DNA from: Myxococcales bacterium
GTDB lineage: Bacteria; Myxococcota_A; UBA9042; JAGQJP01
Assembly (NCBI GenBank): GCA_020430585.1
Contig: JAGQJP010000665.1
Location: 1-34,998, forward strand
Length of the DNA: 34,998 nt
Direction: 5' to 3'
Below the pieces are notes generated by a model, which saw only the letters and a list, made by a program, of their open reading frames with translations, was not told where the DNA came from and searched no databases. The number at the start of each line of letters is the position of its first letter. Position 1 is the first letter of the stretch. Positions 20,189-34,612 of this stretch are shown piece after piece. The position numbers and the translations under genes were made by a program.

Positions 20189-21041
20189 GACGCCGAGACG
20201 AGGGGAGGGCGCGATGATCCGACGGCTCCTGGTGAGCACGAGCGCGGCGATCTTGCTCGCGATCGTGCTCCTGGCGTTGACGGCCTCATGGATTGCCCCC
20301 TACACGCCGCGGGATCGCGACGAGACCGCGCTGCTCGATCAGCCGTCGGCGACACACTGGCTCGGGACGGACGAGAACGGTCGAGACATCCTCAGCCTGA
20401 TCATCTATGGCAGCCGCGTCACGGTCACCGTCGGGCTCGGCACGGTCGCGCTCTGCCTCGCCGTAGGCACGCTCCTCGGCCTGATCGCGGGCTACAGTCG
20501 GGGCCTCGTCGACGAGCTGTTGATGCGCGCCACCGAGGTCGTGCTCTCCTTTCCCGGGATCTTGCTCGCGATTCTGATCGTCTTCGTCGTGCAATCGCCA
20601 GGCACGCTGACGGTGATCCTCGCCCTCTCGGTCACGGGCTGGGCGGGGTATGCCCGCCTCGTCCGCGGGCAGGTGCTCCAGGCCCGAGAGCTCGAGTTCA
20701 TCCGCGCCTCCGAGGCGCTCGGCGCGCGACCCGCGAGGATCTTGCTGCGTCACGTTCTGCCGACCATCCTCGGGCCGATCATCGTCCAGGCGACCTTCGG
20801 CGTCGCGGGGGCGATCCTCGCCGAAGCGAGCCTGAGCTTCCTCGGCCTCGGTCCGAGCGAGGCGACGAGCTGGGGCGCGATGCTCGATCAGGGCGCGGTG
20901 CTCTTCATCAAGAGCCCCTACCTCGCCATCGTCCCGGGCCTGGCGATCTTCAGCGTCGTACTGGCGATCAATTTCCTCGGCGATCGCCTGCGCGACGCCT
21001 TCGACCCGACGCAGAGGCACGATGCATCTTCGGCTCACTGA
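20178..21041 (+). CDS. ABC transporter permease, DppC/OppC family
   Basis: 287 aa. Contains HWLGTDENGRDILSLIIYGSRVT, RASEALGARP, and the C-terminal FLGDRLRDAFDP. The start is ATG at 20178, overlapping the upstream stop by 11 nt, or ATG at 20214. Confidence 0.85.
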   Translation: MGDETPRRGEGAMIRRLLVSTSAAILLAIVLLALTASWIAPYTPRDRDETALLDQPSATHWLGTDENGRDILSLIIYGSRVTVTVGLGTVALCLAVGTLLGLIAGYSRGLVDELLMRATEVVLSFPGILLAILIVFVVQSPGTLTVILALSVTGWAGYARLVRGQVLQARELEFIRASEALGARPARILLRHVLPTILGPIIVQATFGVAGAILAEASLSFLGLGPSEATSWGAMLDQGAVLFIKSPYLAIVPGLAIFSVVLAINFLGDRLRDAFDPTQRHDASSAH

Positions 21042-22134
21042 TCGAACGGAGAGACGCCGCGCCCTCGGGCGCCTCCTGATCGCTGGCTTCGACGGCCTCA
21101 GCCCCTCGGCGGAGTGGAGGGCGATGCAGGCGCGCTGGAACCTCGGCGGCTACATACTGTTCCGTCGCAACATCGACTCCGTAGAGCAGGTCGCCGAGCT
21201 CAACGCCGAGCTGCGGGCCCCTGCAGGGGCCGGCGCAGCGACGATCGCCAGCGTCGACCAGGAGGGTGGCCGAGTGCGCCGCCTACGCGAGGGTGTGACG
21301 CCGATTCCGCCGATGCTCGAGCTCGGCCGGCACGGCACAGAGGCCTGCGAACGCGTCGGAGAGCTCGTCGCTCGCGAGCTCTCCGCCTTGGGCTTCACCC
21401 TCAACTTCGCCCCCGTCCTCGACGTCTTCACCGAGCCGCGAAACACGGTCATCGGCGATCGAGCCTTCTCGACGTCGCCCCAAGAGGCGACAACACTCGC
21501 CCTCGCCTTCGCCAGGGGGCAACATCGCGGGGGCATCGCGACCTGCGGCAAGCACTTTCCGGGCCACGGTGACACGCTGCTCGATAGCCACGTCGCGCTG
21601 CCCCGCGTGAGCCACCCCCTCGAGCGCTTGCGACAGCTCGAATGGCTCCCCTTTCGCGCTGCGAGCGAGGCGGCGCTACCGCTGCTGATGACGGCGCACG
21701 TGATCGTCGAGTCCCTCGACCCGATGTGGCCGGCGACGCTGAGTGAGACCGTGTTGGCATACCTGCGCGACGAGATCGGCTTCGACGGGCTGCTGATCAC
21801 CGACGATCTCGAGATGGACGCCGTGGCGAAGAACTACGACTGGCCGACGACCGTCCGCCGCGCACTGTTCGCTGGCGTCGACCTCTTTTTGGTCTGTCAT
21901 TCGCTCGACAAGCAGCTCGAGCTCCTCGACGAGCTCGAGCGGCAGGTTGTTCACGACATCGCCGCCCGACGGCGGGTCGAACGATCTCTGGAGCGCGTCT
22001 CCCGGTTCCACGAGCGCTTCGCCACGGCACCGTTCCACGTCGATCGCGCGGCGCTGCGACGCGTCGTCGGTAGCCCGAGCCACCTCGCAGTGCTGCAGGC
22101 CCTCGGCTTCGATCAGGGGATCGGATCGGTCTGA
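21022..22134 (+). CDS. nagZ: Beta-N-acetylhexosaminidase, glycoside hydrolase family 3 (NagZ), cytoplasmic
   Basis: 370 aa with no signal peptide. Contains LIAGFDG...GGYILFRRN, SVDQEGGRVRRL, NFAPVLDV, and KHFPGHGDTLLDSHVALP, which is the NagZ D-x-H catalytic loop. It overlaps the permease gene by 20 nt. Confidence 0.85.
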   Translation: MHLRLTDRTERRRALGRLLIAGFDGLSPSAEWRAMQARWNLGGYILFRRNIDSVEQVAELNAELRAPAGAGAATIASVDQEGGRVRRLREGVTPIPPMLELGRHGTEACERVGELVARELSALGFTLNFAPVLDVFTEPRNTVIGDRAFSTSPQEATTLALAFARGQHRGGIATCGKHFPGHGDTLLDSHVALPRVSHPLERLRQLEWLPFRAASEAALPLLMTAHVIVESLDPMWPATLSETVLAYLRDEIGFDGLLITDDLEMDAVAKNYDWPTTVRRALFAGVDLFLVCHSLDKQLELLDELERQVVHDIAARRRVERSLERVSRFHERFATAPFHVDRAALRRVVGSPSHLAVLQALGFDQGIGSV

Positions 22135-22634
22135 AGATTCGCCTCGCAGAGCTGGTCGACACAGCTCGAGCCGCTCTCACAATCATCGCTCGTGGTGCAG
22201 AGATCGACGACGCAGAGCGTGTCGATGCACGTCCCGTTGGTGCAAGCGTTCTCTGGACAACGGAAGGGGTCGATGTTGTCGACGACGTTCAGCTCACCGA
22301 CGACCTGGGTTCGATGTCCCGCGCGATCCTCGACCGTGAGAGAGACCTGAAACGTGCCGACGAGGTCGAAGGTATGGCTCGCGGTCTGCGTGCTCGTCAC
22401 CAGCGCCGGGGTTCCGTCTCCAAAGATGAAGGTGTAGGTCAGCTGTCCGTCGGGCTCGGCGTCTCGTGAGCGCGAGGCGTCGAAGCTCACAGGCTCGCCG
22501 CGCTTGACGATCAGCGGGTGGGAGAGCGCTGCTCGCGGCGGATCGTCGCTCGCCGAGCTCCCTCCACCACCACCACACGATGTCGAAAGGAGCAACACCA
22601 GAGCCAAAAAGCAAACCCAACCGCGATCCATCAT
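22113..22634 (-). CDS. Lipoprotein with one PKD-like Ig domain and a C-terminal 8-Cys module
   Basis: The start is ATG at 22632-22634 (MMDRGWVCFLALVLLLSTSCGGGGG; lipobox LSTSC), forming an ATGA overlap with the upstream stop. The PKD signature is VSFDASRS...LTYTFIFGDGT...HTF...GTFQVSLTVED. The tail reads CPENACTNGTCIDTLCVVDLCTTSDDCESGSSCVDQLC. Confidence 0.7.
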   Translation of the reverse strand: MMDRGWVCFLALVLLLSTSCGGGGGSSASDDPPRAALSHPLIVKRGEPVSFDASRSRDAEPDGQLTYTFIFGDGTPALVTSTQTASHTFDLVGTFQVSLTVEDRAGHRTQVVGELNVVDNIDPFRCPENACTNGTCIDTLCVVDLCTTSDDCESGSSCVDQLCEANLQTDPIP

Positions 22635-24742
22635 CGTTTCGCCGCCAACGCCGTTTCGGCAAATAGTATCAAAACAACCGCCAGAATTGCAAACGGCCAC
22701 AGATTCAGCCGCTGCTTCGGTTGACCCGGGGGCGTCCGCGCCAACGTCGTGCCGCGCGACGAGCTGCCGAGGCGCAGGCGCTTCTTGACCTCGGAAAGCT
22801 CGGCGGGCCGCAGATCCGAATCGGAGTGGCCGAGGGTGACGACGAAGCGACTGACGAGTCGACGACGCGAGCCGCTCAGCGACTGCTCGACCAGATAGAC
22901 GCCAGGTAGCGCTGTGTCGCGATAGACCAGACGCCGCGAGCGGCCCCAGTGGGAGGAGGAAAATTGCTTGACTCGACCATTCGGCGCATGGACGACGACG
23001 GACTCGACGTTCTTGTCGATCTCGATCGGGTACTCCGAATGTACGCGAACCGAGGTTGGCGGCGGGACACGGGTCCCACCACCGAGGACGCGCGCGATCT
23101 GGTGCACGAAGGGCAAGAACCCGGACTGAATCGCAAAGTCGCTCCAGTCGCGGTCGATCGTCGTCGTGAAGAAGAAGACACGACCCGCCTTGACGCGACG
23201 TTCGACGAGCGCGGGAGAGCCGTTGTCGAACGAGAGCAGCACCTTCGCGTCGCCGAGCCGACGCTCGAGCAGCAGAAACTGCGAGGTGTGCCCGGCGAGC
23301 AGGCGACGTCCGGGAGAAAAGGCGCGGAAGAGCGGGTGTCGCGAGTCGACTTTGCCGAAGAGCAAGGCCCGCAGCTTCGCCTCGGGCGAGCGGGGATCGA
23401 CGACGATCTTCACGCCGCGAACGGTGTAAGGCAGAAGCTCGCGAAAGACCGAATTGTAGTCGGGCGTGACGTTGGAGCCCGAGGTGATCAGCAATCCGCC
23501 GCCCTTCTCGACGAAACCCACGACGCGCCGCACGACGGACCGCGGCAGCGCCGCTACGTTGAGCAAGAACATGGCGTCCACGTCGGTCAGCGATTGCGTC
23601 GCCAGCTCGTCTGGTCGAATGGTCTGGAGCCGCACCTTGGTCCGCGCGTCGGCACGCGGTTGGAGCGCCAGGGAGACGAAGTAGCTCTCGTCCAGGTAAG
23701 GCACCGTGCGCGGCGCTCCGTTGACCAGCAGAACCGAGATCGACCGATTCTGCCGAACCAGAAACGGATACTCGTTGTCGAAGGCGAGCGCATCCGCGGG
23801 AATTCGGGCGTATCCCACGCGATCTCCCTTGCTCTCGACTTTGATCAAGAAGCGCTTCTGCGCCGCCTTCCCCGGCGCCAGGGGCTGATCGAGGTAGCCC
23901 TTGACCGTACGCCCCTCGATCTCGATCTCGATCGGCTTGAAGAACGCCCGCTTGGTGTAGTTGGCGATCGTGACGACGACGTTGAAGTGCTGGGGCGACA
24001 CGTCGGGGGCTGGCTCGACGGCGACCGTGCGAATCGCCAGGTTTTCACGAGAAGAGGTGGGAGCGATCGACTCGAATCGCACGATGGGGGCGGCCCCGAG
24101 ACCCCACGGTGCCTCGACCCCGCTCCAGACGTGGCGCGAATGGTCGCTCAGAACGACGATCTCGCGCTGTAGATGAGCTGGCGCCTTGCTCAAGATGCTG
24201 TCCGCCAAGCGTAGCGCACCGAGCATGTCGGTCTCCTTCGTCGAAAGCACGACGCTCGCGAGAGACTCACGCAAGCGGCTGACGTCGTAGGTCAAACGCC
24301 CGATTGGCGCCGACGCGGGGCGCGAGGCGAAGACCAGCGCCACCATCTCGTCTCCGCGGGTCCGGCGAAGCAGCTCCTGCAGCCGTTCGCGCGCCCGCTC
24401 GAGGTTACTCGTCGTTCCATCCGTCGCCGCCATGCTCCAGGAGTTGTCGAAGACGTAGACCGTCGCCGACGAGGTCATCCCGCCGAAGCTGGTCAACCGG
24501 TCGGTGTGGGTGAAGGGCTTGGCGAGGGCGATCGCCAGAATGACCAACAAAGCGATGCGCGCCAACAGGACGAGCAGCTGCCGTAGCTTCATTCGGCGGA
24601 TCAGGTTCTTGCGGCTACGCAGGATGAACTCGATCGCGGCGAAGCGCTTGCGCTCGGCGCGGCGTCGGTTGAAGAGGTGGATCGCCACCGGAATCGCCGC
24701 CGCCAGTGCACCCCAGAGGTAGAGTGGTAGCTCGAAGCTCAT
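22631..24742 (-). CDS. BatA_N double-transmembrane plus von Willebrand factor A domain membrane protein (BatA-like), 703 aa
   Basis: The track ORF 22631-25444 is over-extended. The start is ATG at 24740-24742, an ATGA overlap with the DUF58 stop. The N-terminus MSFELPLYLWGALAAAIPVAIHLFNRRR...LLVLLARIALLVILAIALAKP matches the aerotolerance-regulator N-terminal pattern. The vWA MIDAS motif DNSWS lies at 24434-24448. There is a C-terminal TM segment LNLWPFAILAVVLILFAETALAA. Confidence 0.75.
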   Translation of the reverse strand: MSFELPLYLWGALAAAIPVAIHLFNRRRAERKRFAAIEFILRSRKNLIRRMKLRQLLVLLARIALLVILAIALAKPFTHTDRLTSFGGMTSSATVYVFDNSWSMAATDGTTSNLERARERLQELLRRTRGDEMVALVFASRPASAPIGRLTYDVSRLRESLASVVLSTKETDMLGALRLADSILSKAPAHLQREIVVLSDHSRHVWSGVEAPWGLGAAPIVRFESIAPTSSRENLAIRTVAVEPAPDVSPQHFNVVVTIANYTKRAFFKPIEIEIEGRTVKGYLDQPLAPGKAAQKRFLIKVESKGDRVGYARIPADALAFDNEYPFLVRQNRSISVLLVNGAPRTVPYLDESYFVSLALQPRADARTKVRLQTIRPDELATQSLTDVDAMFLLNVAALPRSVVRRVVGFVEKGGGLLITSGSNVTPDYNSVFRELLPYTVRGVKIVVDPRSPEAKLRALLFGKVDSRHPLFRAFSPGRRLLAGHTSQFLLLERRLGDAKVLLSFDNGSPALVERRVKAGRVFFFTTTIDRDWSDFAIQSGFLPFVHQIARVLGGGTRVPPPTSVRVHSEYPIEIDKNVESVVVHAPNGRVKQFSSSHWGRSRRLVYRDTALPGVYLVEQSLSGSRRRLVSRFVVTLGHSDSDLRPAELSEVKKRLRLGSSSRGTTLARTPPGQPKQRLNLWPFAILAVVLILFAETALAAKR

Positions 24743-25641
24743 CCGCCGCCTCGACCGGTGAGGAAGCGGTTGACGACGACCTCGACGGGCACCGCGCAGT
24801 CGACGAGCTGATAGCTGATGTCGTTCTCCAGGCAGCGGTGCTTGGTCTCGGAGAGGAAGCGCCCGAGCTCCTGAAGATAGGCGTCGCGGATCATCCGCGG
24901 CTCGGCGAGCACGCGCTGCGCGCTCTCCATCCCCTCGAAGCGCGTCACCTTGTGGAACGGGAAGGTCAGCTCGTCGGGGTCGAGCACGTGAAACAGCGTG
25001 ACCGAGAGGCGACGAGCCCGCAGTCGGCGCAGCAGCTGAAAGACGCTGTCGGCGTCGTCGAAGAGATCGCTGAGCACGAACGCCACTTCGCGGCGGCGCG
25101 CCAGCTCGCTCAGGCGCTCCAGCCCGGCGGCCACTCCGACCGTTCCCTGAGGCTCGACCTCTTCGAGCGCCGTGCAGAGGGGATACAGATGGGAAAACGC
25201 TGCCCGCGGCGGCACGTAGGTCTGTGTCTCGGCGCCGTGGACGATCAACCCGACGGCGTCGGCCTGCACCAGAAAGAGATACGAGAGGGCCGCCGTCAGA
25301 TACCCAGCGGTCTCGTACTTGGTGCGCGCGCCCGAGCCATACCGCATCGACTCCGAGGCGTCGATCACGAAGTAGACCTTGAGGTTGCTCTCCTTCTCGA
25401 ACTGCTTGATGTAGTACTTGTCGGACTTCGCGGCGGCCTTCCAATCGATGTGTCGGATCTCGTCGCCGGGTGTGTACTCTTTGTGCTCCGCGAATTCGAT
25501 CGACGCGCCGCGGTGCGGGCTGCGGTGAATCCCCGACAGACGTCCCTCCATCGGCCGTCGAGCCTTGTATCCGACGCGTCCGAGACGAGAGAAGAGCTTC
25601 GAGTCGAGGTATTTCGGTTGATCCGGCACGCGCGCCTCCAC
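24739..25641 (-). CDS. DUF58 family protein (partner of MoxR ATPases)
   Basis: HRSPHRGASIEFAEHKEYTPGDEIRHIDWKAAAKSDKYYIKQF and VYFVIDASESMRYGS are typical DUF58 motifs. The start is uncertain: in-frame GTG at 25641 (7 nt after the MoxR stop), GTG at 25629, or the track's TTG at 25680, which would overlap moxR. Confidence 0.75.
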   Translation of the reverse strand: MEARVPDQPKYLDSKLFSRLGRVGYKARRPMEGRLSGIHRSPHRGASIEFAEHKEYTPGDEIRHIDWKAAAKSDKYYIKQFEKESNLKVYFVIDASESMRYGSGARTKYETAGYLTAALSYLFLVQADAVGLIVHGAETQTYVPPRAAFSHLYPLCTALEEVEPQGTVGVAAGLERLSELARRREVAFVLSDLFDDADSVFQLLRRLRARRLSVTLFHVLDPDELTFPFHKVTRFEGMESAQRVLAEPRMIRDAYLQELGRFLSETKHRCLENDISYQLVDCAVPVEVVVNRFLTGRGGG

Positions 25642-25648
25642 GAGACCG

Positions 25649-26674
25649 CTAGGGTCCGACGGTCTCGAGCAGCCGCTCAACGATCTGCCCCGCGCTGACG
25701 CGGTCCGCCTCGGCGTGGAAGTTGGTGACGATGCGGTGGCTCAGCACATAGGGCGCCAGACGCGAAACCTCGCTCGTCGAGACGGCGACCTGACCGTGCA
25801 AGAGCGACATCGCCTTGGCCCCGAGAATCAGATATTGCGACGCCCGTGGACCCGCGCCCCAGCTCACGTACTCGCGGACGAAATCGGGAGCCGACGGCTC
25901 GTTGGGCCGCGTGGCGCGCACCAAGCGCACGGCATAGGCGAGGACGTGGTCGGCGACGGGCACACGCAGCACTAGCTGCTGCATCCGCAAGATCCGCTCG
26001 GGGGTGATCACCTTCTCGAGCATCTCGGCGACGCCACCCGTGTTGCGGCGGACGATCTCCATCTCCTCTTCCAGCGAGGGGTAGAGCACCTGAATCGAGA
26101 ACATGAAACGATCGAGCTGCGCCTCGGGGAGCGGGTAGGTCCCCTCCTGTTCGATCGGATTCTGCGTCGCGAAGACGAGAAACGGCGGCTCGAGCTGGTA
26201 GGTCGTCCCGCCCGCCGAGACTTGCAACTCCTGCATCGCCTGCAAGAGGGCCGCCTGCGTCTTCGGCGGTGTGCGGTTGATCTCGTCGGCGAGGAGGATG
26301 TTGGAGAAGATCGGCCCCTTGAGAAACTTGAAAACGCGCCGACCGGTTGCGCGGTCTTCCTCGAGGATGTCCGTCCCCGTGATGTCCGAGGGCATCAGGT
26401 CGGGGGTGAACTGGATCCGGTTGAACCGCAGACTCAGCGCCTCCGAGAGCGTGCTGATCAACATCGTCTTCGCCAACCCGGGCACGCCGATAAAGAGGCA
26501 GTGACCCTTGGCGAAGAGGCTGGTCAAGAGGATCTCGACCACCGTCCCTTGACCGATGATCCGCTTGGAGATTTCGTGCTGGATGCGCTCGCGGCAACTG
26601 CGGAGCTCTTCAATTTCGGACAGCTCGGCATCGGTGGGCGCCAACGCCGCCTGCTGACCTACTTGCGTCGTCAT
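25649..26674 (-). CDS. moxR: MoxR-family AAA+ ATPase
   Basis: Walker A GVPGLAKT, Walker B ILLADEINRTPPKTQAALLQAMQE, and FLVFATQNPIEQEGTYPLPEAQLDRF. The start is ATG at 26672-26674 (MTTQVGQQ...), an ATGA overlap with the upstream stop. The track start at 26716 is an alternative. Confidence 0.9.
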   Translation of the reverse strand: MTTQVGQQAALAPTDAELSEIEELRSCRERIQHEISKRIIGQGTVVEILLTSLFAKGHCLFIGVPGLAKTMLISTLSEALSLRFNRIQFTPDLMPSDITGTDILEEDRATGRRVFKFLKGPIFSNILLADEINRTPPKTQAALLQAMQELQVSAGGTTYQLEPPFLVFATQNPIEQEGTYPLPEAQLDRFMFSIQVLYPSLEEEMEIVRRNTGGVAEMLEKVITPERILRMQQLVLRVPVADHVLAYAVRLVRATRPNEPSAPDFVREYVSWGAGPRASQYLILGAKAMSLLHGQVAVSTSEVSRLAPYVLSHRIVTNFHAEADRVSAGQIVERLLETVGP

Positions 26675-28395
26675 TTCACGTCCTGTTCGCGGCTGAGGAT
26701 CTTCATCTTCTGCCAACTGCTCTTGGCCAACCGCTCGTCACCCTTCAACTGGTAAACCTTGAATAACATACGATGAATGTCGATATCAAACGGATTGATC
26801 CGCTCGGCGCGCAGCAGATGCTGCAACGCGAGATCGTAGGCTTTGGTTTCGAAGAAGGCGCGTCCGAGATAGAAATTGACCAGGAAATAGTCCGGGTAAT
26901 AGCGCGTCACAGCGCGCAGCGTGTCGATCGCCTTCTGGGAGAGGCCGAGCTCGAGATAGGCATGCGCCAGTTTCGCCTGCACCATCGGTTTGACGTCGCC
27001 GATCAACCCCGTCGCCTTGCGATACTCTTTCACCGCCGCACGATAGCGACGGCGAGCGCGCAGCAGGTCACCGAGGTAGACGAAGCGACGCGCCTCTTTT
27101 TCCTTGATCATCCCGAGCTCGGCGCGCCGCTGATCGTTCGCCTTGCCCTTGAAGAGCTTGCCGACGGGCACGAGGCCAGGATAGCTGCGCAACGACTGAG
27201 CCCCGAGCCAGCGGCGCCACTCGCGGTTGAACTCGCTGAAGGAGAGCGAGAGCACCTGCTTGATCGCCTGCTTGTCGCTCAACCCTGTGGTCATCGCGTC
27301 TAGCAGACGGCGCACGAGCGGGGCACCGCCCTTCTCGTACATCTGTTGCACCGCGGTGAAGACCTCGGCGAACGCGAGCGCCGTCTCCGCCTGGCTCGGC
27401 AGCTTGGCCATCGAGGGGCTCATCTTCGCGAAGCTGATCAGCTTGCGTCCCTTGAGGGCCTGCGCGAGCAGGTGCTCGTGGATCAGCGAAAGACGCGCCG
27501 CCTTCTCTTCTCGCCAGCGGTTCTCGAAGAACTTGGCCAGCCCTTCGTGGAGCCAAACCGGCACGCTGTTGTGGGTCTTGCGCGTGATCACGAAGTGGAT
27601 GTACTCGTGGGCCAGGGTGTCGAGCCAGTTGTAGCCCCAGACCAGCGCTCGCGGCGAGACGATCATCATCCGGTTGAATTTGCAGATCGCGATCGTACCG
27701 CTAGTGGTGATCTCGGCCAGGGTCAGCGGTGTGACGCGGGCGAGCTGTTCGGTCGAGGGGTAGATCTCGACGATCACGGGCCCCGTTGGGCGATAGTCGA
27801 AGATCCCGCCGAGCTTCTGCCAGGCGAGATCGAGGGCGAGCCCGGCCCCCTCGAGGAGCACCTCGTCGAGCCCCGGCTGATAGCGAATGACGAAGTGACC
27901 CTTGGGGCTTCGATAGGATTTGAACTGGCGGGTCATCTCGAGCGCGCCCTTCGCCATCGTGTGGTAGTAGCGCACGAGGCTCAACCGTTGGCGCGTCGCG
28001 TCGAGTCCCTCGAAGATCGTCACCGCCGCCCTGTATTCCCCGCGCAAGAAGGCGAGAATCCCGCGCAATGTCTTGACCTGGGGGTCGTCGGGAAAGGCGC
28101 GGGTCAAGGGCGCGAGCTTCTCCTCGGCGACCTCGATCTGCCAGCTGCGAAAGCGATTGAGGATCTCGACGATCGCCGACGACTGGGGCGCAGCGCGAAG
28201 CGTCGTCGGGAGCAGGAACACGCTCCAGAGCACGACGACGCCGACCAACCACCGCGCCGAGCGCGTCGCCGATGCGATGGCAGCGCGTGCGCTAGGTCTA
28301 CCCGCCCGCGCTCGCTGGTCGCTGGCGTAGGTCACGCCCGCGCTCGGTCGCGATCGCCCGCGGTCGTCTCGTTGCTCGGCAGAGGTTCGGTTCAT
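26671..28395 (-). CDS. Membrane-anchored or secreted protein with a gluzincin-type HExxH...E motif (Peptidase_MA-like) and C-terminal TPR repeats
   Basis: 574 aa. The ATG at 28393-28395 forms an ATGA overlap with the upstream stop. An Arg-rich N-terminus is followed by the hydrophobic segment WLVGVVVLWSVFLLPTTLRAAP. The motif HEYIHFVITRKTHNSVPVWLHEGLAKFF spans 27544-27609. The C-terminal ~150 aa are TPR-like (AVKEYRKATGLIGD..., AIDTLRAVTRYYPDY..., ALQHLLRAERINPFD). Confidence 0.7.
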   Translation of the reverse strand: MNRTSAEQRDDRGRSRPSAGVTYASDQRARAGRPSARAAIASATRSARWLVGVVVLWSVFLLPTTLRAAPQSSAIVEILNRFRSWQIEVAEEKLAPLTRAFPDDPQVKTLRGILAFLRGEYRAAVTIFEGLDATRQRLSLVRYYHTMAKGALEMTRQFKSYRSPKGHFVIRYQPGLDEVLLEGAGLALDLAWQKLGGIFDYRPTGPVIVEIYPSTEQLARVTPLTLAEITTSGTIAICKFNRMMIVSPRALVWGYNWLDTLAHEYIHFVITRKTHNSVPVWLHEGLAKFFENRWREEKAARLSLIHEHLLAQALKGRKLISFAKMSPSMAKLPSQAETALAFAEVFTAVQQMYEKGGAPLVRRLLDAMTTGLSDKQAIKQVLSLSFSEFNREWRRWLGAQSLRSYPGLVPVGKLFKGKANDQRRAELGMIKEKEARRFVYLGDLLRARRRYRAAVKEYRKATGLIGDVKPMVQAKLAHAYLELGLSQKAIDTLRAVTRYYPDYFLVNFYLGRAFFETKAYDLALQHLLRAERINPFDIDIHRMLFKVYQLKGDERLAKSSWQKMKILSREQDVK

Positions 28396-31300
28396 TGTAC
28401 GTTTCGTCGTAAAATCGCTTCGTAATACTGTTTGAGGAGCTGCTCGTAGCGCTTGGGCACGTTTCCGCGCTCGCGGTACGCCCGCAGCACCTCTTCGGTG
28501 AACTGCTTGGGCGGCTTGTGGTCGTCGGCCGTCGGAATCCGGACACGGTCGGTGTCGGGACGAATCGAGCCGATCTGCTGTCGCGGTGACTGCTTGAAGG
28601 TCTTTTCGAGATTCTGCTGCAAGCGCTGCAAGCGCTCGATCGCGCTCTTCTCGTGGAACTCCGCCTGCAGCGGGCTGCTCTCGCCAAGTCGCCGCCCGGC
28701 CCGCTCCATCGAGCGCCGCACGTCCTGCATCAGCTCGCGCACTTCGCGGCTGATGATCGGATAGTCTTTGCTCAACTTGCGCAGCTCGTCATAGGTCTTC
28801 TCCAGCTTCTGCGAGAGATTGCTCTGGCGCTTCGAGAGCCGCTGTAGGCGCCGCTTCTCCGGCTCTCCGAGCAGCTTGCGCTGCCCCTTGAGCATCTGGC
28901 GGATCTCATCGGAGATCTCCTGGGCCAGGGGCAACGAGCGTTCGAGCTGTTTCTTGGCGAGCTTGAGCGGTCGTTGCCGCTTGTTCGTATCGCGCAGTGA
29001 GCGAAACGTGAGCTGCGTCTCGAGCTCGCGGCGCAATTTCTTGATCCCCTGTCGCGTCTCTTCGGCGAGCTTGAACGCCTCTTTGACGTCGAACTGCTTG
29101 AGCACGTCCCGCAGGTGCTGCGCGCGCCGCTTGAGATTCTGTAGCGCCTGGCGATCGAGGGAGTGCAGCGGCTTGCCGCGAATCCGCCCGAGCTTGTGCT
29201 CGAGTTGCCTCACCTTGGCGAGTTGTTTCTTGAGGAACTTGTCCATCTGCTTGCGCATCAGACGCTGCAGCTTCTTGTTGTACGCCTCGGAGATCTTCGA
29301 GGTCTTGCTCTGAATCCGACGCTGTTCGCGCTCGAGCCGCTCGAGCTTGCGCGTCATCTTCTTCACACCTTGATACGCGGCGGAGAACTTCTCGTTCTGA
29401 AAGCGACGTAGGTCGCGGTTCATCGATGCGCGCAGGTTCTGCAGCTCGTTCTGCAGATTGTTCGCCATGTTCAGCGCCTCATCGTACTTGCCCTTGGCCA
29501 AGAGCTCCTTCATTCGGCGCAGGCGGTCCTTCATCTTGCTCAAGCTGGTCATGTTCTTGCCGTGCTTGAAGGCGCTCCGATTGAAGCGCTCGTCGGGCAG
29601 CACGGTCGTCGGCGCCGCGAGCTGCTTCATGATCTGTTGCAGCTTCGTCTCGAGTGCGGCGATCTTGCGCTTCACCTCGGCTGCCAGCTTCGCGTTGGGC
29701 TTGTTCTTGAGCTGATTCATCAGCTCCATCAGGCGATTTTGGTCGCTGAGCAGGTCCTTGACGCTGCTGAGCACGTTCTCCTGCTTCTGTCGACCGATCA
29801 GGTTCTGGACGAAGGGGATGTGCTTCTCGAGCGCCCCGATCTGGGACTCGTTGATCCGGAAGAGCGACGTCAAATCCGAGAGATTGCGCTGCCCGCCGTG
29901 GTGCAACAGCATCGACTTGAGCTGCCGCGTCTCGTCGGCGTTGAGCTTCTCGATCGAGGCGAGAATCGCGCCATAGTCCTGCACGACCTCGAGACGAGTC
30001 AGCGGATCCTTTTGCAAATCGCGGCGAAGGGCTCGCAGCTTCTCCTCGAGGTCGCTGCTCGCCTTGGAGATCGCGCTCTGAGCACGAAACAGAAGGTCGT
30101 AGCGTTGGAGCGCCCGCTCGTCGATCGGGCTCTCGAGGCGATCGCCGAGCAAGCGGATCATCGCCTCGACGAGCTTCACCTGCCGACGGAGCAGCTGTTT
30201 GTGTTTTCGCTGAGGCGAAAAGATTCGGATCAGGATCGCCGAGCTCCGCGTCTTTTTGTGCCCCTGGACCTCATCGTTGTCCAGCACTTCGAGCCAGCAC
30301 TGGAGCTGATCGCCTCGCGTCAGATCGAGCTTGGCCAGCTCGAGCTCTTCGTTCTGCGAGCGATAGAGCTTCTGCGACGACGAGAACGACTTGAGTCGGA
30401 GGCGCTTCTCCTTGTTGCGCGGCGTGCAGACCAGATCGATGCGGCTGAGTCCGAAGTCGTCGCTGGTGACGAAGCGCAGCGGCAGCCGATCGGTCGGGTT
30501 GAGCTCGATCTCTGGCGGCATGTTCACCCACTCGACCTCGGGGGGCAGATCACGCTCGGCCTCGATCGTGCGCCACGATGTCTCATCGGTGCGCGACCCG
30601 CGATGCTCGATACGGAAGCGGAAACGCTCGGGCCCATCGACGACGAGAGAGCCGCGTGCCAGCCCGCTGCGCGGGTCCAAGCGCAGGTCGATCGGCTTGT
30701 TCGCCACTCCTTTGCGCAAAAGCACGATCCGATCGGCGGGAAATAGCGGCCGTGTCTCGAAGCGAACGCGAGTACCGCGCAACGCCGTAATGTCGCCGCG
30801 GGTTCCGCGAATCGTCTTCGGGGCGAGCCCGGTATAGGCGGGATAGATGTACCGTAGCGTCAGATCGCCGACGACGACCTCGCTCTTGCGCGTGATCACG
30901 AGCCGCGGCGGCACACCGTAACGGCGGCTGTCGACGAGCTCACGAAAGCCGAGGAGAAACTGGCTCGGCAACGCGGCGATGGCGACGGCACAGGAGAGCA
31001 ACATGATGCCGGCGATCCGATAGTTCTGCGTGGCCCGCCCATCGGCGAGGATTCGACGCACGTCGAGGGCCGCGCAGTGCCGCGCGGTGCGGCGGTAGAG
31101 CTCGGCCAAGAGAGCCGACGAGAAGCCACGTCGACTCGAGACACCCGCCGTGAAATCGACCGAGCTCGAGAGATCGTTGCGCAACGCCGGGTGCCGTCGT
31201 TCGAGATAGCTCGCGACCGTCACCAGAGAGCGAAAGCGGAAGAACGGCACGACGAGGATCGCGATCACGGTGCCAGCGACCATCACCGCGGCGGCGATCG

Positions 31301-31478
31301 CGACGACGATCCGAAAGAGCGCCACGTTCTGCACGACCCCAGCGCCGAAGACCGCTACGGCCATGAGCGGAATCGCCAACACGATCCAGGCCGAAAGCGC
31401 CGTGCCGAGTTGGCGCCACGCGATCGTGTAGCGTGCACGCGTAAGAAAGGCCATGATGGAGCGTTGATCGTTCGTCAT
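28392..31478 (-). CDS. Large polytopic membrane protein with a beta-rich middle region and a ~600-aa K/R/Q/E/L-rich helical (coiled-coil-like) C-terminal region; DUF4175-like by architecture
   Basis: 1028 aa, with ATG at 31476-31478. The N-terminus has 3-4 hydrophobic helices (LSAWIVLAIPLMAVAVFGAGV, FRIVVAIAAAVMVAGTVIAILVV, IAGIMLLSCAVAIAAL). The C-terminus ends PKRYEQLLKQYYEAILRR. The family name is a recollection-based guess; the CDS itself is solid. Confidence 0.6.
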   Translation of the reverse strand: MTNDQRSIMAFLTRARYTIAWRQLGTALSAWIVLAIPLMAVAVFGAGVVQNVALFRIVVAIAAAVMVAGTVIAILVVPFFRFRSLVTVASYLERRHPALRNDLSSSVDFTAGVSSRRGFSSALLAELYRRTARHCAALDVRRILADGRATQNYRIAGIMLLSCAVAIAALPSQFLLGFRELVDSRRYGVPPRLVITRKSEVVVGDLTLRYIYPAYTGLAPKTIRGTRGDITALRGTRVRFETRPLFPADRIVLLRKGVANKPIDLRLDPRSGLARGSLVVDGPERFRFRIEHRGSRTDETSWRTIEAERDLPPEVEWVNMPPEIELNPTDRLPLRFVTSDDFGLSRIDLVCTPRNKEKRLRLKSFSSSQKLYRSQNEELELAKLDLTRGDQLQCWLEVLDNDEVQGHKKTRSSAILIRIFSPQRKHKQLLRRQVKLVEAMIRLLGDRLESPIDERALQRYDLLFRAQSAISKASSDLEEKLRALRRDLQKDPLTRLEVVQDYGAILASIEKLNADETRQLKSMLLHHGGQRNLSDLTSLFRINESQIGALEKHIPFVQNLIGRQKQENVLSSVKDLLSDQNRLMELMNQLKNKPNAKLAAEVKRKIAALETKLQQIMKQLAAPTTVLPDERFNRSAFKHGKNMTSLSKMKDRLRRMKELLAKGKYDEALNMANNLQNELQNLRASMNRDLRRFQNEKFSAAYQGVKKMTRKLERLEREQRRIQSKTSKISEAYNKKLQRLMRKQMDKFLKKQLAKVRQLEHKLGRIRGKPLHSLDRQALQNLKRRAQHLRDVLKQFDVKEAFKLAEETRQGIKKLRRELETQLTFRSLRDTNKRQRPLKLAKKQLERSLPLAQEISDEIRQMLKGQRKLLGEPEKRRLQRLSKRQSNLSQKLEKTYDELRKLSKDYPIISREVRELMQDVRRSMERAGRRLGESSPLQAEFHEKSAIERLQRLQQNLEKTFKQSPRQQIGSIRPDTDRVRIPTADDHKPPKQFTEEVLRAYRERGNVPKRYEQLLKQYYEAILRRNVQ

Positions 31479-31537
31479 AAGAGTTGGCGGGGTGCGTCGC
31501 TAACCGTCTTCGTGAATCCCTTGCGGTACAAGCGTCG

Positions 31538-31546
31538 ATTGTAGCA
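31538..31546 (-). promoter_or_regulatory. Candidate extended -10 promoter (TGCTACAAT) for the MoxR-module operon
   Basis: The minus strand reads TGcTACAAT about 55 nt upstream of the ATG at 31478. There is no convincing -35. Pattern match only. Confidence 0.2.
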
Positions 31547-31603
31547 GAAATATTCCCCCGACGCCCGGCCTTTCGACAGCTCGCGGTCCTCGATGTCGAA
31601 CGA

Positions 31604-31632
31604 TTTACTTTTGACCCGAGCTCCTCTATGAT
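31604..31632 (+). promoter_or_regulatory. Candidate sigma-70-type promoter for the second ECF sigma gene
   Basis: TTTACT, a 17-nt spacer, then TATGAT, about 65 nt upstream of position 31699. Pattern match only. Confidence 0.2.
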
Positions 31633-31698
31633 TTCATCTCGATTCGACCGCTGCACCATCGGTAATCGGTCCAAATAATTTTTGAATTTTCGCCCCGT

Positions 31699-32316
31699 TT
31701 GTTCGTCGTACAAGCAAGTGGTTGGAGCGCCGGGTTGGAGTTCGACGACCGACAACTCGTAAGACGCTGTCAGCAAGGTGATCGCGAGGCGTTTCGCCTG
31801 TTGGTCGAGCGTTACCAGCGGAAAGTGTACCGCTTGGCCTTCGGGATGGTGCAGAACCCCGATGACGCGATGGACATCGTCCAGGAAGCGTTCATCAAGG
31901 TGCATCGGTACATCGACAATTTCCAGGGGAACTCGAGCTTTCAGACCTGGTTGTATCGGATCGCCTCGAACATCTGCATCGACCACTTGCGACGTGGCGG
32001 ACGCCGCGCCGCCGTCGAATACGACGACGAGCTGCGCCACGAAAGCGACGACGATCCCTCCGACGGAGCGATCCAAACGCGGACCGAATCGCCGGAACGG
32101 ACGCTCGGGCGTAAGGAATTGAACGGAAAAATCCTAGAGGCAATCGAGGGTTTGAGCAAGAAACATCGACAAGTGATTCTCCTTCGAGAGATCGAGGGGC
32201 TATCATATGAAGAGATCTCGGAGGCGCTCCAGATCAACAAAGGTACTGTGATGTCTCGACTGCACCACGCACGGTTGCAGTTGAAGAAGAAATTGCAATC
32301 GTACCTTTCGAACTGA
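31699..32316 (+). CDS. ECF (RpoE-like) RNA polymerase sigma factor
   Basis: LVRRCQQGDREAFRLLVERYQRKVYRLAFGMVQNPDDAMDIVQEAFIKVHRYI...FQTWLYRIASNICIDHLRR covers region 2. HRQVILLREIEGLSYEEISEALQINKGTVMSRLHHAR covers region 4. The start is uncertain: TTG at 31699, or a downstream in-frame TTG giving M-EFDDRQLV. Confidence 0.85.
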   Translation: MFVVQASGWSAGLEFDDRQLVRRCQQGDREAFRLLVERYQRKVYRLAFGMVQNPDDAMDIVQEAFIKVHRYIDNFQGNSSFQTWLYRIASNICIDHLRRGGRRAAVEYDDELRHESDDDPSDGAIQTRTESPERTLGRKELNGKILEAIEGLSKKHRQVILLREIEGLSYEEISEALQINKGTVMSRLHHARLQLKKKLQSYLSN

Positions 32317-32326
32317 GGCGATCGCG

Positions 32327-32926
32327 ATGGACGAACGACGAAGAAAAGAGCTTGAGCGGCTATACGATGGGGAGCTCTCTCCCGCGCGGGCACGACGCGT
32401 GCGCGAAGAGCTCGAACGCGATCCGGCGATGCGGGCCGAGTACGATGAGATCTGCTCGCTGAGCCAGATGCTGCGCGAACCCTTCGACGAGCACGAAGAG
32501 TCGGTCTCGTTCGACGGGCTCTGGAACCGAATCGAGCGGGGGATCGAAAAAGAGCAACCCCTGCCCTGGACGACGCGCGTGGCGATCGCGATTCGCGAAC
32601 ACTTCGCGCTCTATCGAGGTGCTTGGGTAGCCAGCCTGGCGACGGCGTGCGCGCTGTTGATTCTGCTGCTGCCCGCCGTACTGAAGAAGCCGACCGAGCA
32701 GGGTGGCGCGCGCGAGTCTGCGCCGATCTCCAACGAGATGCGCGTCGAGACCTGGGAGGTCGAGAAGGGTGACGTGATCGTCAAGTACCCGAAGTCCAAA
32801 GACCAGCCCGCGGTGATCTACCACCTCGTCGACGACGACGAGTCGGATCGCAACGAGAAACCCAAACCTGAATCGCGAAAGACCAAGTCGCCCACGAGTA
32901 AGCCCAAGAACGACAAGCCCCTATGA
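32327..32926 (+). CDS. Single-pass anti-sigma factor (putative cognate of the upstream ECF sigma)
   Basis: It begins 10 nt after the sigma stop. The N-terminal helical segment LERLYDGELSPARARRVREELERDPAMRAEYDEI resembles anti-sigma N-domains. One TM segment (AWVASLATACALLILLLPAVL) is followed by a short charged periplasmic tail. Confidence 0.6.
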   Translation: MDERRRKELERLYDGELSPARARRVREELERDPAMRAEYDEICSLSQMLREPFDEHEESVSFDGLWNRIERGIEKEQPLPWTTRVAIAIREHFALYRGAWVASLATACALLILLLPAVLKKPTEQGGARESAPISNEMRVETWEVEKGDVIVKYPKSKDQPAVIYHLVDDDESDRNEKPKPESRKTKSPTSKPKNDKPL

Positions 32927-33363
32927 AGTTGATTGCGCTCTGCGCGTTGTTCGCGACGATAACGACCGCAACCGAAGCCGCGCCGCAGGATACAACGACG
33001 GCGTCCTTCGAGGTGCGGGTGATCGCCGCGGCGCGCGAGCGTAGACCGACTCGAGACCCCGATATTTCGCCGAGAATGGCGCGTCAGCTCGGGCGAACAT
33101 TTAGCAAGTTCAACAGTTTCAAGCTCGTCAAGCTCGTCACCTTCCGCGCGGCCGCCAATGTCAAGAGCCCGATGGCGCTCCCGGGATTCGAACATCCCCT
33201 GCAGTTGACCTACCTCGGGATGAAAAAGAACTTCATTCGCATCTATCTCGAGCTCCTCGGGCTGCGCACCCAGGTTCGCGTGCACAACGGCGGGACCTTC
33301 TTCCATGCGACCCAGCGACGTCGGTCGCTGACGATCATCGCGGTCACCTCTCGCGTGCCCTGA
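32923..33363 (+). CDS. Small secreted hypothetical protein
   Basis: 146 aa. It forms an ATGA overlap with the anti-sigma stop. The signal peptide is MKLIALCALFATITTATEAAP. I recognise no family. Confidence 0.5.
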   Translation: MKLIALCALFATITTATEAAPQDTTTASFEVRVIAAARERRPTRDPDISPRMARQLGRTFSKFNSFKLVKLVTFRAAANVKSPMALPGFEHPLQLTYLGMKKNFIRIYLELLGLRTQVRVHNGGTFFHATQRRRSLTIIAVTSRVP

Positions 33364-33384
33364 CAGCGCTCAGGAAAACCGCGG

Positions 33385-33414
33385 TTGCCAAGCGCTTGAC
33401 GTATCCTCTATAAT
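33385..33414 (+). promoter_or_regulatory. Candidate sigma-70-type promoter with a perfect -10
   Basis: TTGCCA (33385-33390), an 18-nt spacer, then TATAAT (33409-33414), 65 nt upstream of the ATG at 33479. Confidence 0.4.
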
Positions 33415-33478
33415 CTAGCAAATTCCAGGCTTGGGCCATTTGTACAACCACAATCGGAAAATCCAAGAAGTGGACGAC

Positions 33479-34612
33479 ATGACAGGCAAGAAATTATTGA
33501 GCTACGCCGTTTTTACCGCCGTATTGTTGGCGGGCATTGCTCCGGCCTTCGGGCAGGCCTGCACGGACAAAGAGAAGGCGAAAACCCACTATCGTCAAGG
33601 GTACGAGCTGTTCACGCAGGAGAAGTACAAGGAGGCGATCGAACAGTTCACGATGGCGCAGAAGTTCTGTCCCGCTCCGCCAAACTTGTACAACATCGCG
33701 AAGAGCCACGAGAAGCTGGCGAACTTCGAAGAGGCGATCAAGTTCTACAAGGGCTACCTCGAGTCCTATCGCAAGAAGAACAACAAGCTCCCGCCGGACT
33801 TCAAGAGCATCAACGAGACGATCAAAACGATGCAGGACAAGCTCACCGAGTCGTTTCCGTTGCTCGTCGTCCGCAGCACGCCGAAGGGCGCGACCGTCTA
33901 TCTCAACAACAAGGACACCGTCCGCGGCACGACGCCGTTTCAGACGAACCTGCGGCCGGGTACGCATACGCTCTATCTCGAGTTGCCAGGCTACGAGCCG
34001 TTCAAGACCGAGTTCACGCTCGAGAAGAAGAAGAACCTGACCCTCGAGTTTCAGCTGACCAAGAGCCAGCGTGTCGGCTACTTGACGATCAACGTCAACG
34101 TGCGCGGCGCGAAGATCTACGTCGACGGCAAGGTGATCGGGATCTCGCCCTACCGCGACAAGATCCTCGTCAACGAAGGCAAGCACCAGATCGTCGTCGA
34201 GCAGGGCGACAAGTACACCAAAGCGGAAGACATCGTCAACGTGCGCAAGGGTGACAACATCACGCGGGGCTACAGGCTCAAGCTGATCAGCCCGCCGATC
34301 AGCTGGCGCGGTGCGGTTGGTTGGACCTTCATCGGTGTCGGGCTCGCGGGGATCGGAACCGGAATCTTGTTCAAGTTCCTCGCGGACAAGAAATTCAAGG
34401 ACACGAGTAGCTTCAAGCTGCGAAAGAACCTGTCGATCACTGGCTACGCCCTCGGGAGCATCTTGATCGGCGCAGGAATCGGCCTCGTCGTCTGGGAGTA
34501 TACTCGCGCCGCAGTCGACGAGAAGGATTTGGTGTACATACCGCGCCTGCAGCTGATCCCCACCAGAGGCGGAACGGTTGGTGTGGGTGCGAGCTGGGGT
34601 TGGACATTCTGA
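33479..34612 (+). CDS. PEGA-domain envelope protein (signal peptide, TPR-like helix pair, two PEGA domains, two C-terminal hydrophobic helices)
   Basis: ATG at 33479 (MTGKKLLSYAVFTAVLLAGIAPAFGQ) is preferred to the track's TTG at 33431. The PEGA-like repeats are LLVVRSTPKGATVYLNNK..RGTTPF...LRPGTHTLYLELPGYEPF and LTINVNVRGAKIYVDGKVIGISPY...GKHQIVVEQ. The hydrophobic helices are GWTFIGVGLAGIGTGILF and GYALGSILIGAGIGLVVW. Confidence 0.75.
   Translation: MTGKKLLSYAVFTAVLLAGIAPAFGQACTDKEKAKTHYRQGYELFTQEKYKEAIEQFTMAQKFCPAPPNLYNIAKSHEKLANFEEAIKFYKGYLESYRKKNNKLPPDFKSINETIKTMQDKLTESFPLLVVRSTPKGATVYLNNKDTVRGTTPFQTNLRPGTHTLYLELPGYEPFKTEFTLEKKKNLTLEFQLTKSQRVGYLTINVNVRGAKIYVDGKVIGISPYRDKILVNEGKHQIVVEQGDKYTKAEDIVNVRKGDNITRGYRLKLISPPISWRGAVGWTFIGVGLAGIGTGILFKFLADKKFKDTSSFKLRKNLSITGYALGSILIGAGIGLVVWEYTRAAVDEKDLVYIPRLQLIPTRGGTVGVGASWGWTF

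Follow-up and report, generated by a model that had tools for sequence, protein, structure and literature searches.

MoxR ATPases of the MRP type, together with a DUF58 protein and a BatA-type protein carrying a von Willebrand factor A (vWA) domain, occur in many phyla; in several bacteria, they influence the tolerance of stress, virulence or the integrity of the envelope. In the Bat operons of Bacteroides, Riemerella, Leptospira and Borrelia, the genes are arranged in the order MoxR-DUF58-BatA-BatB-BatC-BatD-BatE. The MRP MoxR gene is typically the first one of such an operon and is accompanied by genes for DUF58, vWA and tetratricopeptide repeat (TPR) proteins (PMC11834572). Here, a locus of this kind was analyzed in a DNA stretch of 34,998 nucleotides from a Myxococcales bacterium (GenBank assembly GCA_020430585.1, contig JAGQJP010000665.1, positions 1 to 34,998), which is called the window in the following. 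Six genes on the minus strand of the window (22113-31478), named G1 to G6 in the order of transcription, encode a large DUF4175 membrane protein (G1), a peptidase with TPRs (G2), the MoxR, DUF58 and BatA/vWA proteins (G3, G4 and G5), and a probable lipoprotein with a PKD domain (G6). Our preferred reading, to which we give about an even chance, is that this locus is the Myxococcota form of the MoxR-DUF58-BatA/vWA ('Bat-like') inner-membrane system, that it consists of two sub-modules that are translationally coupled, and that it works by the mechanism proposed below.

In Riemerella anatipestifer, batA and moxR mutants were altered in survival of oxidative or heat stress and had stress and virulence defects (PMC11834572). 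Experiments on the BatA-type protein BB0173 of Borrelia placed it in the inner membrane and its vWA domain on the periplasmic side (PMC5700661), and the MRP MoxR protein RL3499 of Rhizobium leguminosarum is described as important for cell morphology and for the integrity of the membrane (PMC3893208). The searchable literature yielded no account of the Myxococcota cluster or of a DUF4175-peptidase pair, in line with an earlier note on this stretch, made from the sequence alone, which had named no characterised counterpart. The novel element of the locus is the fused protease; the MoxR-DUF58-BatA/vWA core was already known, and the DUF4175 partner is not wholly non-canonical. The Myxococcota version adds to the core a partner with readable predicted biochemistry, an active-site-intact periplasmic zinc protease, and also a large scaffold with recognisable domains. 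Testable hypotheses on the contacts, on the cleaved substrate and on the membrane side are thereby gained, which classical Bat operons do not offer.

Gene block and its conservation

The six co-directional open reading frames described in the earlier note were confirmed with their coordinates, lengths and minus-strand orientation (Table 1). Four of the junctions read as ATGA overlaps on the minus strand (28392-28395, 26671-26674, 24739-24742 and 22631-22634), and 7 nt lie between the moxR stop codon and the GTG at 25641, both as had been claimed. For the DUF58 gene G4, two GTG starts in the same frame, at 25641 and 25629, are separated by 12 nt, and a GGAGG Shine-Dalgarno motif is located 5 nt upstream of the latter. 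GTG 25629 may therefore be the real start of G4, which would give a protein of 296 aa and a MoxR-DUF58 gap of 19 nt. Neither terminator-like nor sigma-70-like promoter sites were found on the minus strand within the six-gene block. As the 3′ end of G6 runs 22 nt into a convergent gene for a GH3 (NagZ-like) protein, the operon terminates at G6. All families predicted for the six proteins were recovered by Pfam, namely DUF4175, Peptidase_MA_2 with TPR, AAA_3, DUF58, BatA with VWA, and PKD, and NCBIfam added the double-transmembrane domain TIGR02226 in G5 (65.4 bits).

Relatives of G2 are numerous. More than 1,500 were found at E ≤ 1e-5, mostly with 40-45% identity over about 85% of the length, and a pattern scan with one genome per species counted at least 584 species genomes encoding one. 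From these genomes 80 loci were listed, to which all statements on taxa refer; they belong to Myxococcales, Polyangia, Bradymonadia/Bradymonadales, Haliangiales, Kofleriaceae and Anaeromyxobacteraceae, or to unclassified 'delta/proteobacterial' metagenome-assembled genomes. Synteny was counted by tblastn of the window proteins against 83 related loci, with the testable loci as denominators. G1 is located directly upstream of G2 in 69 of 72 loci, and the remaining three have partial G1 matches. The triad G3-G4-G5 follows G2 in colinear order in 42 of 63 loci and is nearby, although rearranged, in four more. The colinear five-gene block spans Myxococcales, Polyangia, Bradymonadia, Haliangiales and Anaeromyxobacteraceae at a G2 identity of only 35-45%, and the neighborhoods of the loci L001 to L003, for which precomputed Pfam calls were available, agree with the five-gene picture.

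A homologue of G6 was detected only in L001, the closest relative (1 of 61 testable loci). A conserved sixth gene was looked for at the 3′ side of G5; the gene found there differs between loci and is frequently convergent. Because the arrangement of the five genes recurs across deeply diverged genomes, it is beyond chance. The conserved unit is therefore G1 to G5, i.e. five genes and not six, and the PKD gene is a lineage-specific add-on. From the six-gene architecture put forward earlier, five genes remain, and of the three genes flanking the core in the earlier note, those for DUF4175 and the peptidase are syntenic with it while the PKD gene is not. The locus is chromosomal and vertically inherited. 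When plasmids were searched by tblastn with G1 and G5, matches were obtained in Gemmatirosa and Planctomyces only.

For the analysis of the junctions, the candidate start nearest to the upstream stop was chosen for each downstream gene, so that the resulting numbers give the maximum of coupling. At the G1-G2 junction, 43 of 65 loci allow an overlap of 4 nt. At the G4-G5 junction, it was found in 25 of 46 loci, and every gap was 20 nt or shorter. The unit is thus composed of two tight sub-modules, G1-G2 and G3-G4-G5, which are usually, though not invariably, joined.

In two loci (L037 11421-19401 and L017 11600-15718), the triad is missing after G1-G2, and the next genes are bpX2, an unidentified gene and bpMoxR; in L037, bpMoxR is followed by a gene for a CHAT-nSTAND1 protein. 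In this clade, a different MoxR system, the MoxR-vWA-beta-propeller ternary conflict system, fills the same slot.

Proteins of the two sub-modules

G2 was matched by Peptidase_MA_2 (PF13485) with 53.6 bits (cut-off 32.4) and by TPR models. In 34 aligned homologues, the HExxH residues H263, E264 and H267 and the downstream E284 are invariant. All 34 carry a signal peptide, and the extracytoplasmic location assumed in the earlier note is thereby upheld. The AlphaFold2 model of G2 (mean predicted local distance difference test (pLDDT) 89.7, predicted TM-score (pTM) 0.85) comprises N-terminal helical repeats, an alpha/beta catalytic core at about residues 159-400 and C-terminal TPRs at 419-573. 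TPR proteins aside, Foldseek matched the catalytic core to yeast LTA4 hydrolase, an M1 gluzincin, and a sequence search of the PDB with the G2 profile retrieved only TPR proteins. Owing to the invariant HExxH...E signature, the signal peptides and the gluzincin fold, G2 is probably an active, secreted zinc peptidase. With the M1-family gluzincins of the MA clan, such as leukotriene A4 hydrolase, it shares the HExxH and downstream Glu zinc ligands and the thermolysin-like catalytic fold. In contrast to them, the Glu is located 16 residues past the motif, the M1 N-terminal beta domain is missing, the core is placed between TPR/helical repeats in what is predicted to be a periplasmic protein, and Peptidase_M1 scores 17.4 bits only. 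Among the loci examined, none but those of Myxococcota type were seen to encode the fusion of gluzincin and TPRs.

G1 belongs to DUF4175 (PF13779; 68.1 bits, cut-off 27.3), with the match extending over residues 12-968 and over positions 6-751 of the 825 model positions; against NCBIfam including TIGR02302, no match was obtained at E ≤ 0.01. The protein has three transmembrane (TM) helices with a helical insert of about 60-80 aa on the cytoplasmic side, followed in the periplasm by two Ig/FnIII-like domains and then by helices. The three hydrophobic segments are kept in 21 of 26 family members, with a common pattern of flanking residues: The N-terminus is rich in K/R, the first loop is short and poor in K/R, and the second loop has 70-90 residues with 6-16 K/R. 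From this K/R distribution, an N-in/C-out topology follows for DUF4175, and about 850 residues of G1 are predicted to be periplasmic. In the AlphaFold2 model (mean pLDDT 76.6, pTM 0.42), two beta-sandwich domains occupy residues 199-411 (pLDDT about 85-90); a helical stretch of about 540 residues comes next, and a conserved motif is present at the C-terminus. Foldseek matched the beta region to tandem Ig/FnIII modules, e.g. of ICAM-1, ICAM-5, VCAM-1 and the FnIII of CbhA; at TM-scores of 0.3-0.4, these matches point to the fold class Ig/FnIII and not to a specific relative. D310, D340, D341 and D400 in the Ig-like domains are invariant in the family alignment.

The helical region of G1 (residues 421-960) has a length of 522-609 aa in all family members, while its net charge varies between -67 and +85 from species to species and amounts to +57 in the window. 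A constant length with variable charge is more in keeping with a role as spacer or strut than with sequence-specific binding. Binding of an anionic envelope polymer by the basic region of the window protein was also considered and was rejected as a feature of the family in view of this range of charges. The word-indexed homologue search returned 7 proteins with G1 alone and 21 with a profile of 26 sequences, being probably limited by the coiled-coil composition, and comparison of the G1 profile with PDB sequences gave spurious helical matches only.

G3 is an AAA_3 protein (202.6 bits) with AAA_lid_2 and a weak bpMoxR match (34.6 bits). Its Walker A motif is kept in 51 of 52 homologues, and the D and E of Walker B in 52 of 52. 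G4 was assigned to DUF58 (159.9 bits) and VWA_2 and is predicted to be soluble; the D, S and S of its DxSxS motif are present in 50 of 50 homologues. G5 was matched by BatA (PF07584; 56.3 bits) and VWA_2 (50.5 bits). The metal ion-dependent adhesion site (MIDAS) DNSWS named in the earlier note is indeed present at residues 99-103 and is mostly kept (D in 44, the first S in 40 and the second in 38 of 44 homologues). Of the three TM helices of G5 (3-21, 56-74 and 683-701), the first two are connected by a 34-residue loop with 13 K/R, and the second and third enclose a region of 608 residues with the vWA domain and weak GH42M- and GATase1-like signals. On the basis of this arrangement, the vWA domain is predicted to be on the periplasmic side, which is the same topology as that of Borrelia BB0173. 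A cytoplasmic MoxR cannot touch the G5 vWA domain directly if it is located there. This counts against the suggestion, made earlier, that a cytoplasmic AAA+ protein directly remodels the membrane vWA protein, and it corrects a common assumption, with the BatA-type vWA domain being predicted beyond the reach of the ATPase. MoxR could then reach no more of the membrane partners than the basic BatA_N loop of G5, with its 34 residues, and the insert of G1 on the cytoplasmic side.

The core of the locus resembles the Bat operons in several features. Common to both are an MRP-type MoxR, a DUF58 gene directly after moxR (gap of 7-19 nt in the window), a BatA_N double-TM domain with a MIDAS-bearing vWA domain, TPR repeats encoded within the operon, and the inner-membrane location with a periplasmic vWA domain, as determined for BB0173 and predicted here. 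Differences concern both order and content: moxR is third in the window and in the 42 colinear loci instead of first. Also, there is only one BatA-type gene, whose product is twice as long (703 aa) and additionally contains a GATase1-like region and a TM helix at its C-terminus. The DUF4175 giant protein is added, and the TPRs are part of a protein with a gluzincin domain whose active site is intact. The absence of the BatB, BatC, BatD and BatE set, as stated earlier, was borne out. The BatB model NF047506, which has a cut-off of 350 bits, reached 38.6 bits, and G5 is the only BatA-type gene among the six. BatD gave no Pfam match at E ≤ 0.01 in the six proteins, and for the beta region of G1, DUF4175 was the only match even at E ≤ 5. 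Separate TPR proteins corresponding to BatC and BatE, as well as an SH3 domain, were not found among the six proteins, TPRs being present only in the G2 fusion.

Relatives of G1 next to comparable cores, or next to DUF4159, which flanks the core in Gemmatirosa, were detected outside the Myxococcota. On the megaplasmid NZ_CP007129 of Gemmatirosa kalamazoonensis (735-747 kb), DUF4159, MoxR, DUF58, BatA/vWA and DUF4175-like genes form one co-directional block. As in the window, it encodes MoxR, DUF58, a BatA_N/vWA protein of considerable length (683 aa) and, as a further large membrane protein, one that is DUF4175-like; differently, the DUF4175-like gene is the last one and stays below the cut-off (26.0 versus 27.3 bits), a peptidase/TPR gene is missing, and DUF4159 is present. 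The metagenomic contig L088 carries DUF58-BatA/vWA-GATase1_like followed by a gene for a G1-like protein of 1197 aa. In L091 (7750-13239), genes for DUF4159, DUF4175 (59.8 bits) and a TPR-only protein of 512 aa, which has no peptidase domain, stand in a row; this TPR protein was tried as a G2 homologue and rejected (hhalign probability 6.6%). DUF4175-like proteins therefore adjoin the MoxR/DUF58/BatA/DUF4159 set in several lineages without being universal partners. As for the non-canonical partners claimed in the earlier note, the fused gluzincin and the gene order are indeed non-canonical, whereas DUF4175-like genes stand beside DUF58-BatA in two other lineages and TPR proteins are canonical Bat partners.

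The TIGR02302/DUF4175 proteins of Alphaproteobacteria belong to the same Pfam family as G1 and also have N-terminal TM helices, while their context is lysA instead of a peptidase and MoxR. An alphaproteobacterial MoxR operon ending in a DUF4175 gene was considered and was not supported, as three such genes of alphaproteobacterial type follow lysA (Table 1). Adjacency to lysA (diaminopimelate decarboxylase) is a hint that DUF4175/TIGR02302 is connected with peptidoglycan or the envelope. The Rhizobium operon RL3499-RL3502 is reported (Vanderlinde et al. 2011, J Bacteriol 193:2684) to encode MoxR, a DUF58 protein and two transmembrane proteins; a peptidase partner is not reported for it. In Rhodobacter, RSP_0730 (TIGR02302/DUF4175) is among the listed binding sites of CenR, a regulator of cell division and envelope (PMC9275681). 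As the title of a paper from 2016 (cited in PMC6842974) states, an Azorhizobium mutant with a TIGR02302 deletion overproduces exopolysaccharide. AdvA of Acinetobacter, an essential division protein, has an N-terminus annotated as DUF4175 (PMC7481262), and its common part with G1 is the N-terminal membrane portion only.

Proposed mechanism and alternative readings

In other MoxR systems (RavA-ViaA, CbbQ-CbbO, NorQ-NorD), the vWA protein is an adaptor between ATPase and substrate, and the MIDAS of this adaptor grips an acidic residue of the client. By our preferred reading, the Bat-like locus would work as follows. In the first sub-module, G1 would be anchored by its three TM helices and would expose about 850 residues to the periplasm, i.e. 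two Ig-like domains and a strut of about 530 residues; the TPR repeats of the protease G2 would dock on G1, which would position it to process or clear an envelope substrate. The second sub-module would consist of a hexameric cytoplasmic MoxR ATPase, the DUF58 adaptor and the BatA-type protein with its periplasm-facing vWA domain and MIDAS. Here, DUF58 would tether MoxR to the basic BatA_N hairpin loop of G5, to the helical insert of G1, both of which are conserved, or to the two together, and ATP hydrolysis would drive the assembly or a conformational change of these membrane partners. In the periplasm, the MIDAS of G5 may bind an acidic ligand, plausibly an invariant Asp in the Ig-like domains of G1. 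The role of the system is likely envelope maintenance or quality control and not aerotolerance as such, and the PKD lipoprotein G6 would be a local accessory. Domain content, conservation and intact catalytic motifs were observed and the topology was predicted from the sequences, while each of the contacts and the physiological role were inferred from them.

Several results weigh against this proposal. The triad G3-G5 was not found within the flank (10 kb) of G1-G2 in 17 of 63 loci, and the G2-G3 junction is the loosest one, with an overlap in just 11 of 50 loci and a median gap of 24 nt. Because G1-G2 occurs without an adjacent triad and is loosely joined to it, the fixed stoichiometry of a single machine that had been read from the tight coupling in the window is not established. 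Also, the three alphaproteobacterial-type DUF4175/TIGR02302 genes that follow lysA have no MoxR nearby. The pTM of the G1 model is only 0.42, and its Ig matches are generic (TM-scores 0.3-0.4). Finally, complete deletion of the bat genes in Leptospira biflexa had no detectable phenotype, including under oxidative stress (PMC3557215).

The main rival takes up the first of these points and is a serious, though in our judgment rather doubtful, explanation: Two independent systems, the G1-G2 scaffold and protease and the Bat-like G3-G5, would stand side by side, their adjacency being synteny inherited from a Myxococcota ancestor. It would account for the loci in which the triad is absent within the flank or rearranged (17 and 4 of 63), for the loose G2-G3 junction, for the occurrence of MoxR-DUF58-BatA modules without the peptidase in other phyla, and for DUF4175 standing alone after lysA in the alphaproteobacterial-type contigs. 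Inherited adjacency fits less well with the colinearity retained across classes despite a protein identity of 35-45%, and in the window, G2 and G3 overlap by ATGA. Moreover, DUF4175-like genes are found beside DUF58/BatA/DUF4159 in other lineages in differing gene orders, which argues for function over inertia.

The opposite extension, that G1 to G5 form one ATP-regulated periplasmic proteolytic machine, we regard as unlikely. MoxR/DUF58 would signal via the BatA_N hairpin and the DUF4175 membrane domain and would in this way gate the zinc protease, which would be mounted on a helical 'ruler' spanning the periplasm with its about 530 residues; by analogy with the integrin I domain and ICAM, one of the invariant Asp residues in the G1 Ig-like domains would be clamped by the MIDAS of G5. 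If true, the mechanism of the MoxR-MRP/Bat family would become accessible for the first time, and periplasmic proteolysis would be coupled to cytoplasmic ATP in a new way. A conserved outer-membrane component was not found for the locus, and the envelope-spanning machine imagined in the earlier note is unproven in this respect.

A gene for an extracytoplasmic function (ECF) sigma factor stands divergently beside G1 in 40 of 70 loci, which leads to a further, improbable reading: G2, held by G1, would act as the site-1 protease that cleaves a neighboring anti-sigma factor under envelope stress and thereby frees the ECF sigma factor. In its favor, the sigma gene is accompanied by a candidate anti-sigma gene, with zf-HC2 domains in L002 and L003, and the shared intergenic region holds an autoregulatory ECF-type promoter. 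The dyad TGAAT-N14-18-CGTC occurs on the ECF-directed strand in 38 of 41 intergenic regions, compared to at most 10 in shuffled sequences; on the G1-directed strand of these 41 regions it was not found. The ECF sigma gene looks autoregulated, and nothing ties the operon to the sigma regulon, so that control of the operon by the ECF sigma factor was rejected, the conserved dyad being directed at the sigma gene only. Furthermore, 30 of 70 loci, including most Bradymonadales, have no ECF neighbor and nevertheless keep G1-G5, the obligate neighbor of G2 is G1 and not an anti-sigma gene, and the anti-sigma candidate of the window lacks Pfam support. We consider the divergent ECF cluster as context only, which does not imply membership in the system.

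Little probability is likewise left for a system serving aerotolerance or the response to oxidative stress, the function suggested by the name of the Bat operon in Bacteroides. Most Myxococcota are aerobic, which makes a dedicated aerotolerance role unlikely. While the BatA_N domain and the MoxR-DUF58 pairing are present and the R. anatipestifer batA and moxR mutants were altered in their survival of oxidative or heat stress (PMC11834572), neither BatB nor BatD is present, the sole TPR element is fused to the G2 peptidase instead of forming a separate protein of BatC/E type, Pfam identified a redox domain in none of the six proteins, and the L. biflexa strain lacking all bat genes had no oxidative-stress phenotype (PMC3557215). 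An anti-phage or conflict system akin to the MoxR-vWA-beta-propeller ternary systems (Kaur et al. 2020) is very improbable: the weak bpMoxR match of G3 (34.6 bits) and the bpX2, bpMoxR and CHAT-nSTAND1 genes after G1-G2 in L017 and L037 are outweighed by the far higher AAA_3 score of G3 (202.6 bits), by the lack of any PADLOC model matching one of the six proteins, by the absence of a beta-propeller, a bpX domain and a cytoplasmic effector, and by the flanks of conserved housekeeping genes and the vertical inheritance.

Neighboring genes and further features

Table 1. Features of the window and of the lysA-adjacent DUF4175 loci; protein functions and cellular locations are predicted.
Feature	Position	Strand	Description
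G1	28392-31478	minus	1028 aa, DUF4175 inner-membrane protein
G2	26671-28395	minus	574 aa, secreted gluzincin (Peptidase_MA_2) between helical-repeat and TPR domains
G3	25649-26674	minus	341 aa, MoxR (MRP-type) AAA+ ATPase, cytoplasmic
G4	24739-25641	minus	300 aa, DUF58 protein, cytoplasmic vWA-like adaptor with DxSxS MIDAS
G5	22631-24742	minus	703 aa, BatA_N double-TM hairpin, periplasmic vWA, GATase1-like region, C-terminal TM helix
G6	22113-22634	minus	173 aa, probable lipoprotein, PKD domain, 8-Cys tail
GH3 (NagZ-like) gene	21022-22134	plus	converges on G6, 22-nt overlap
Slt-type lytic transglycosylase gene	8474-11200	minus	with TPRs
OppC-type ABC permease gene	4101-5546	minus	EF-hand calcium-binding insert, residues ~201-250, between N-terminal TM domain and permease core
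Divergent intergenic region G1/ECF sigma	31479-31698		holds ECF-type promoter dyad
ECF-type dyad TGAAT-N15-CGTC	31513-31517 (TGAAT), 31533-31536 (CGTC)	plus	~165 nt 5′ of sigma start codon, ~35 nt from G1 start codon
Divergent neighbors	31699-34612	plus	ECF sigma, single-TM candidate anti-sigma, small protein, PEGA/TPR protein; Pfam
lysA-adjacent DUF4175/TIGR02302 loci	L085 6682-10529, L086 182-4035, L087 6700-11000		4-nt gene overlap in two of three

G6 was matched by PKD_4 (55 bits) and has a lipobox-like LSTSC followed by a Gly-rich linker; the eight Cys residues described earlier are present in its C-terminal tail. A GH3 homologue stands convergently just 3′ of G5 in about a dozen other loci. 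The rest of the window is made up of chromosomal genes for housekeeping and envelope functions; besides the GH3 and Slt-type proteins, they encode parts of a peptide ABC transporter, further ABC permeases, RsmB, a second ECF sigma factor, a MobA-like transferase and an FHA/TPR protein. The genes for GH3, the Slt-type transglycosylase and the peptide ABC transporter suggest a neighborhood rich in peptidoglycan turnover.

Since the ECF-type dyad in the intergenic region is only about 35 nt away from the start codon of G1, the promoter of G1 must overlap the sigma promoter or its 5′ untranslated region. The upstream cluster of the window (33431-34612, plus strand) also occurs in L001 to L003, there together with a gene for a protein with an FGE-sulfatase domain. 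In L001 and L002, a Ser/Thr kinase gene is located just past the ECF/PEGA/FGE-sulfatase cluster.

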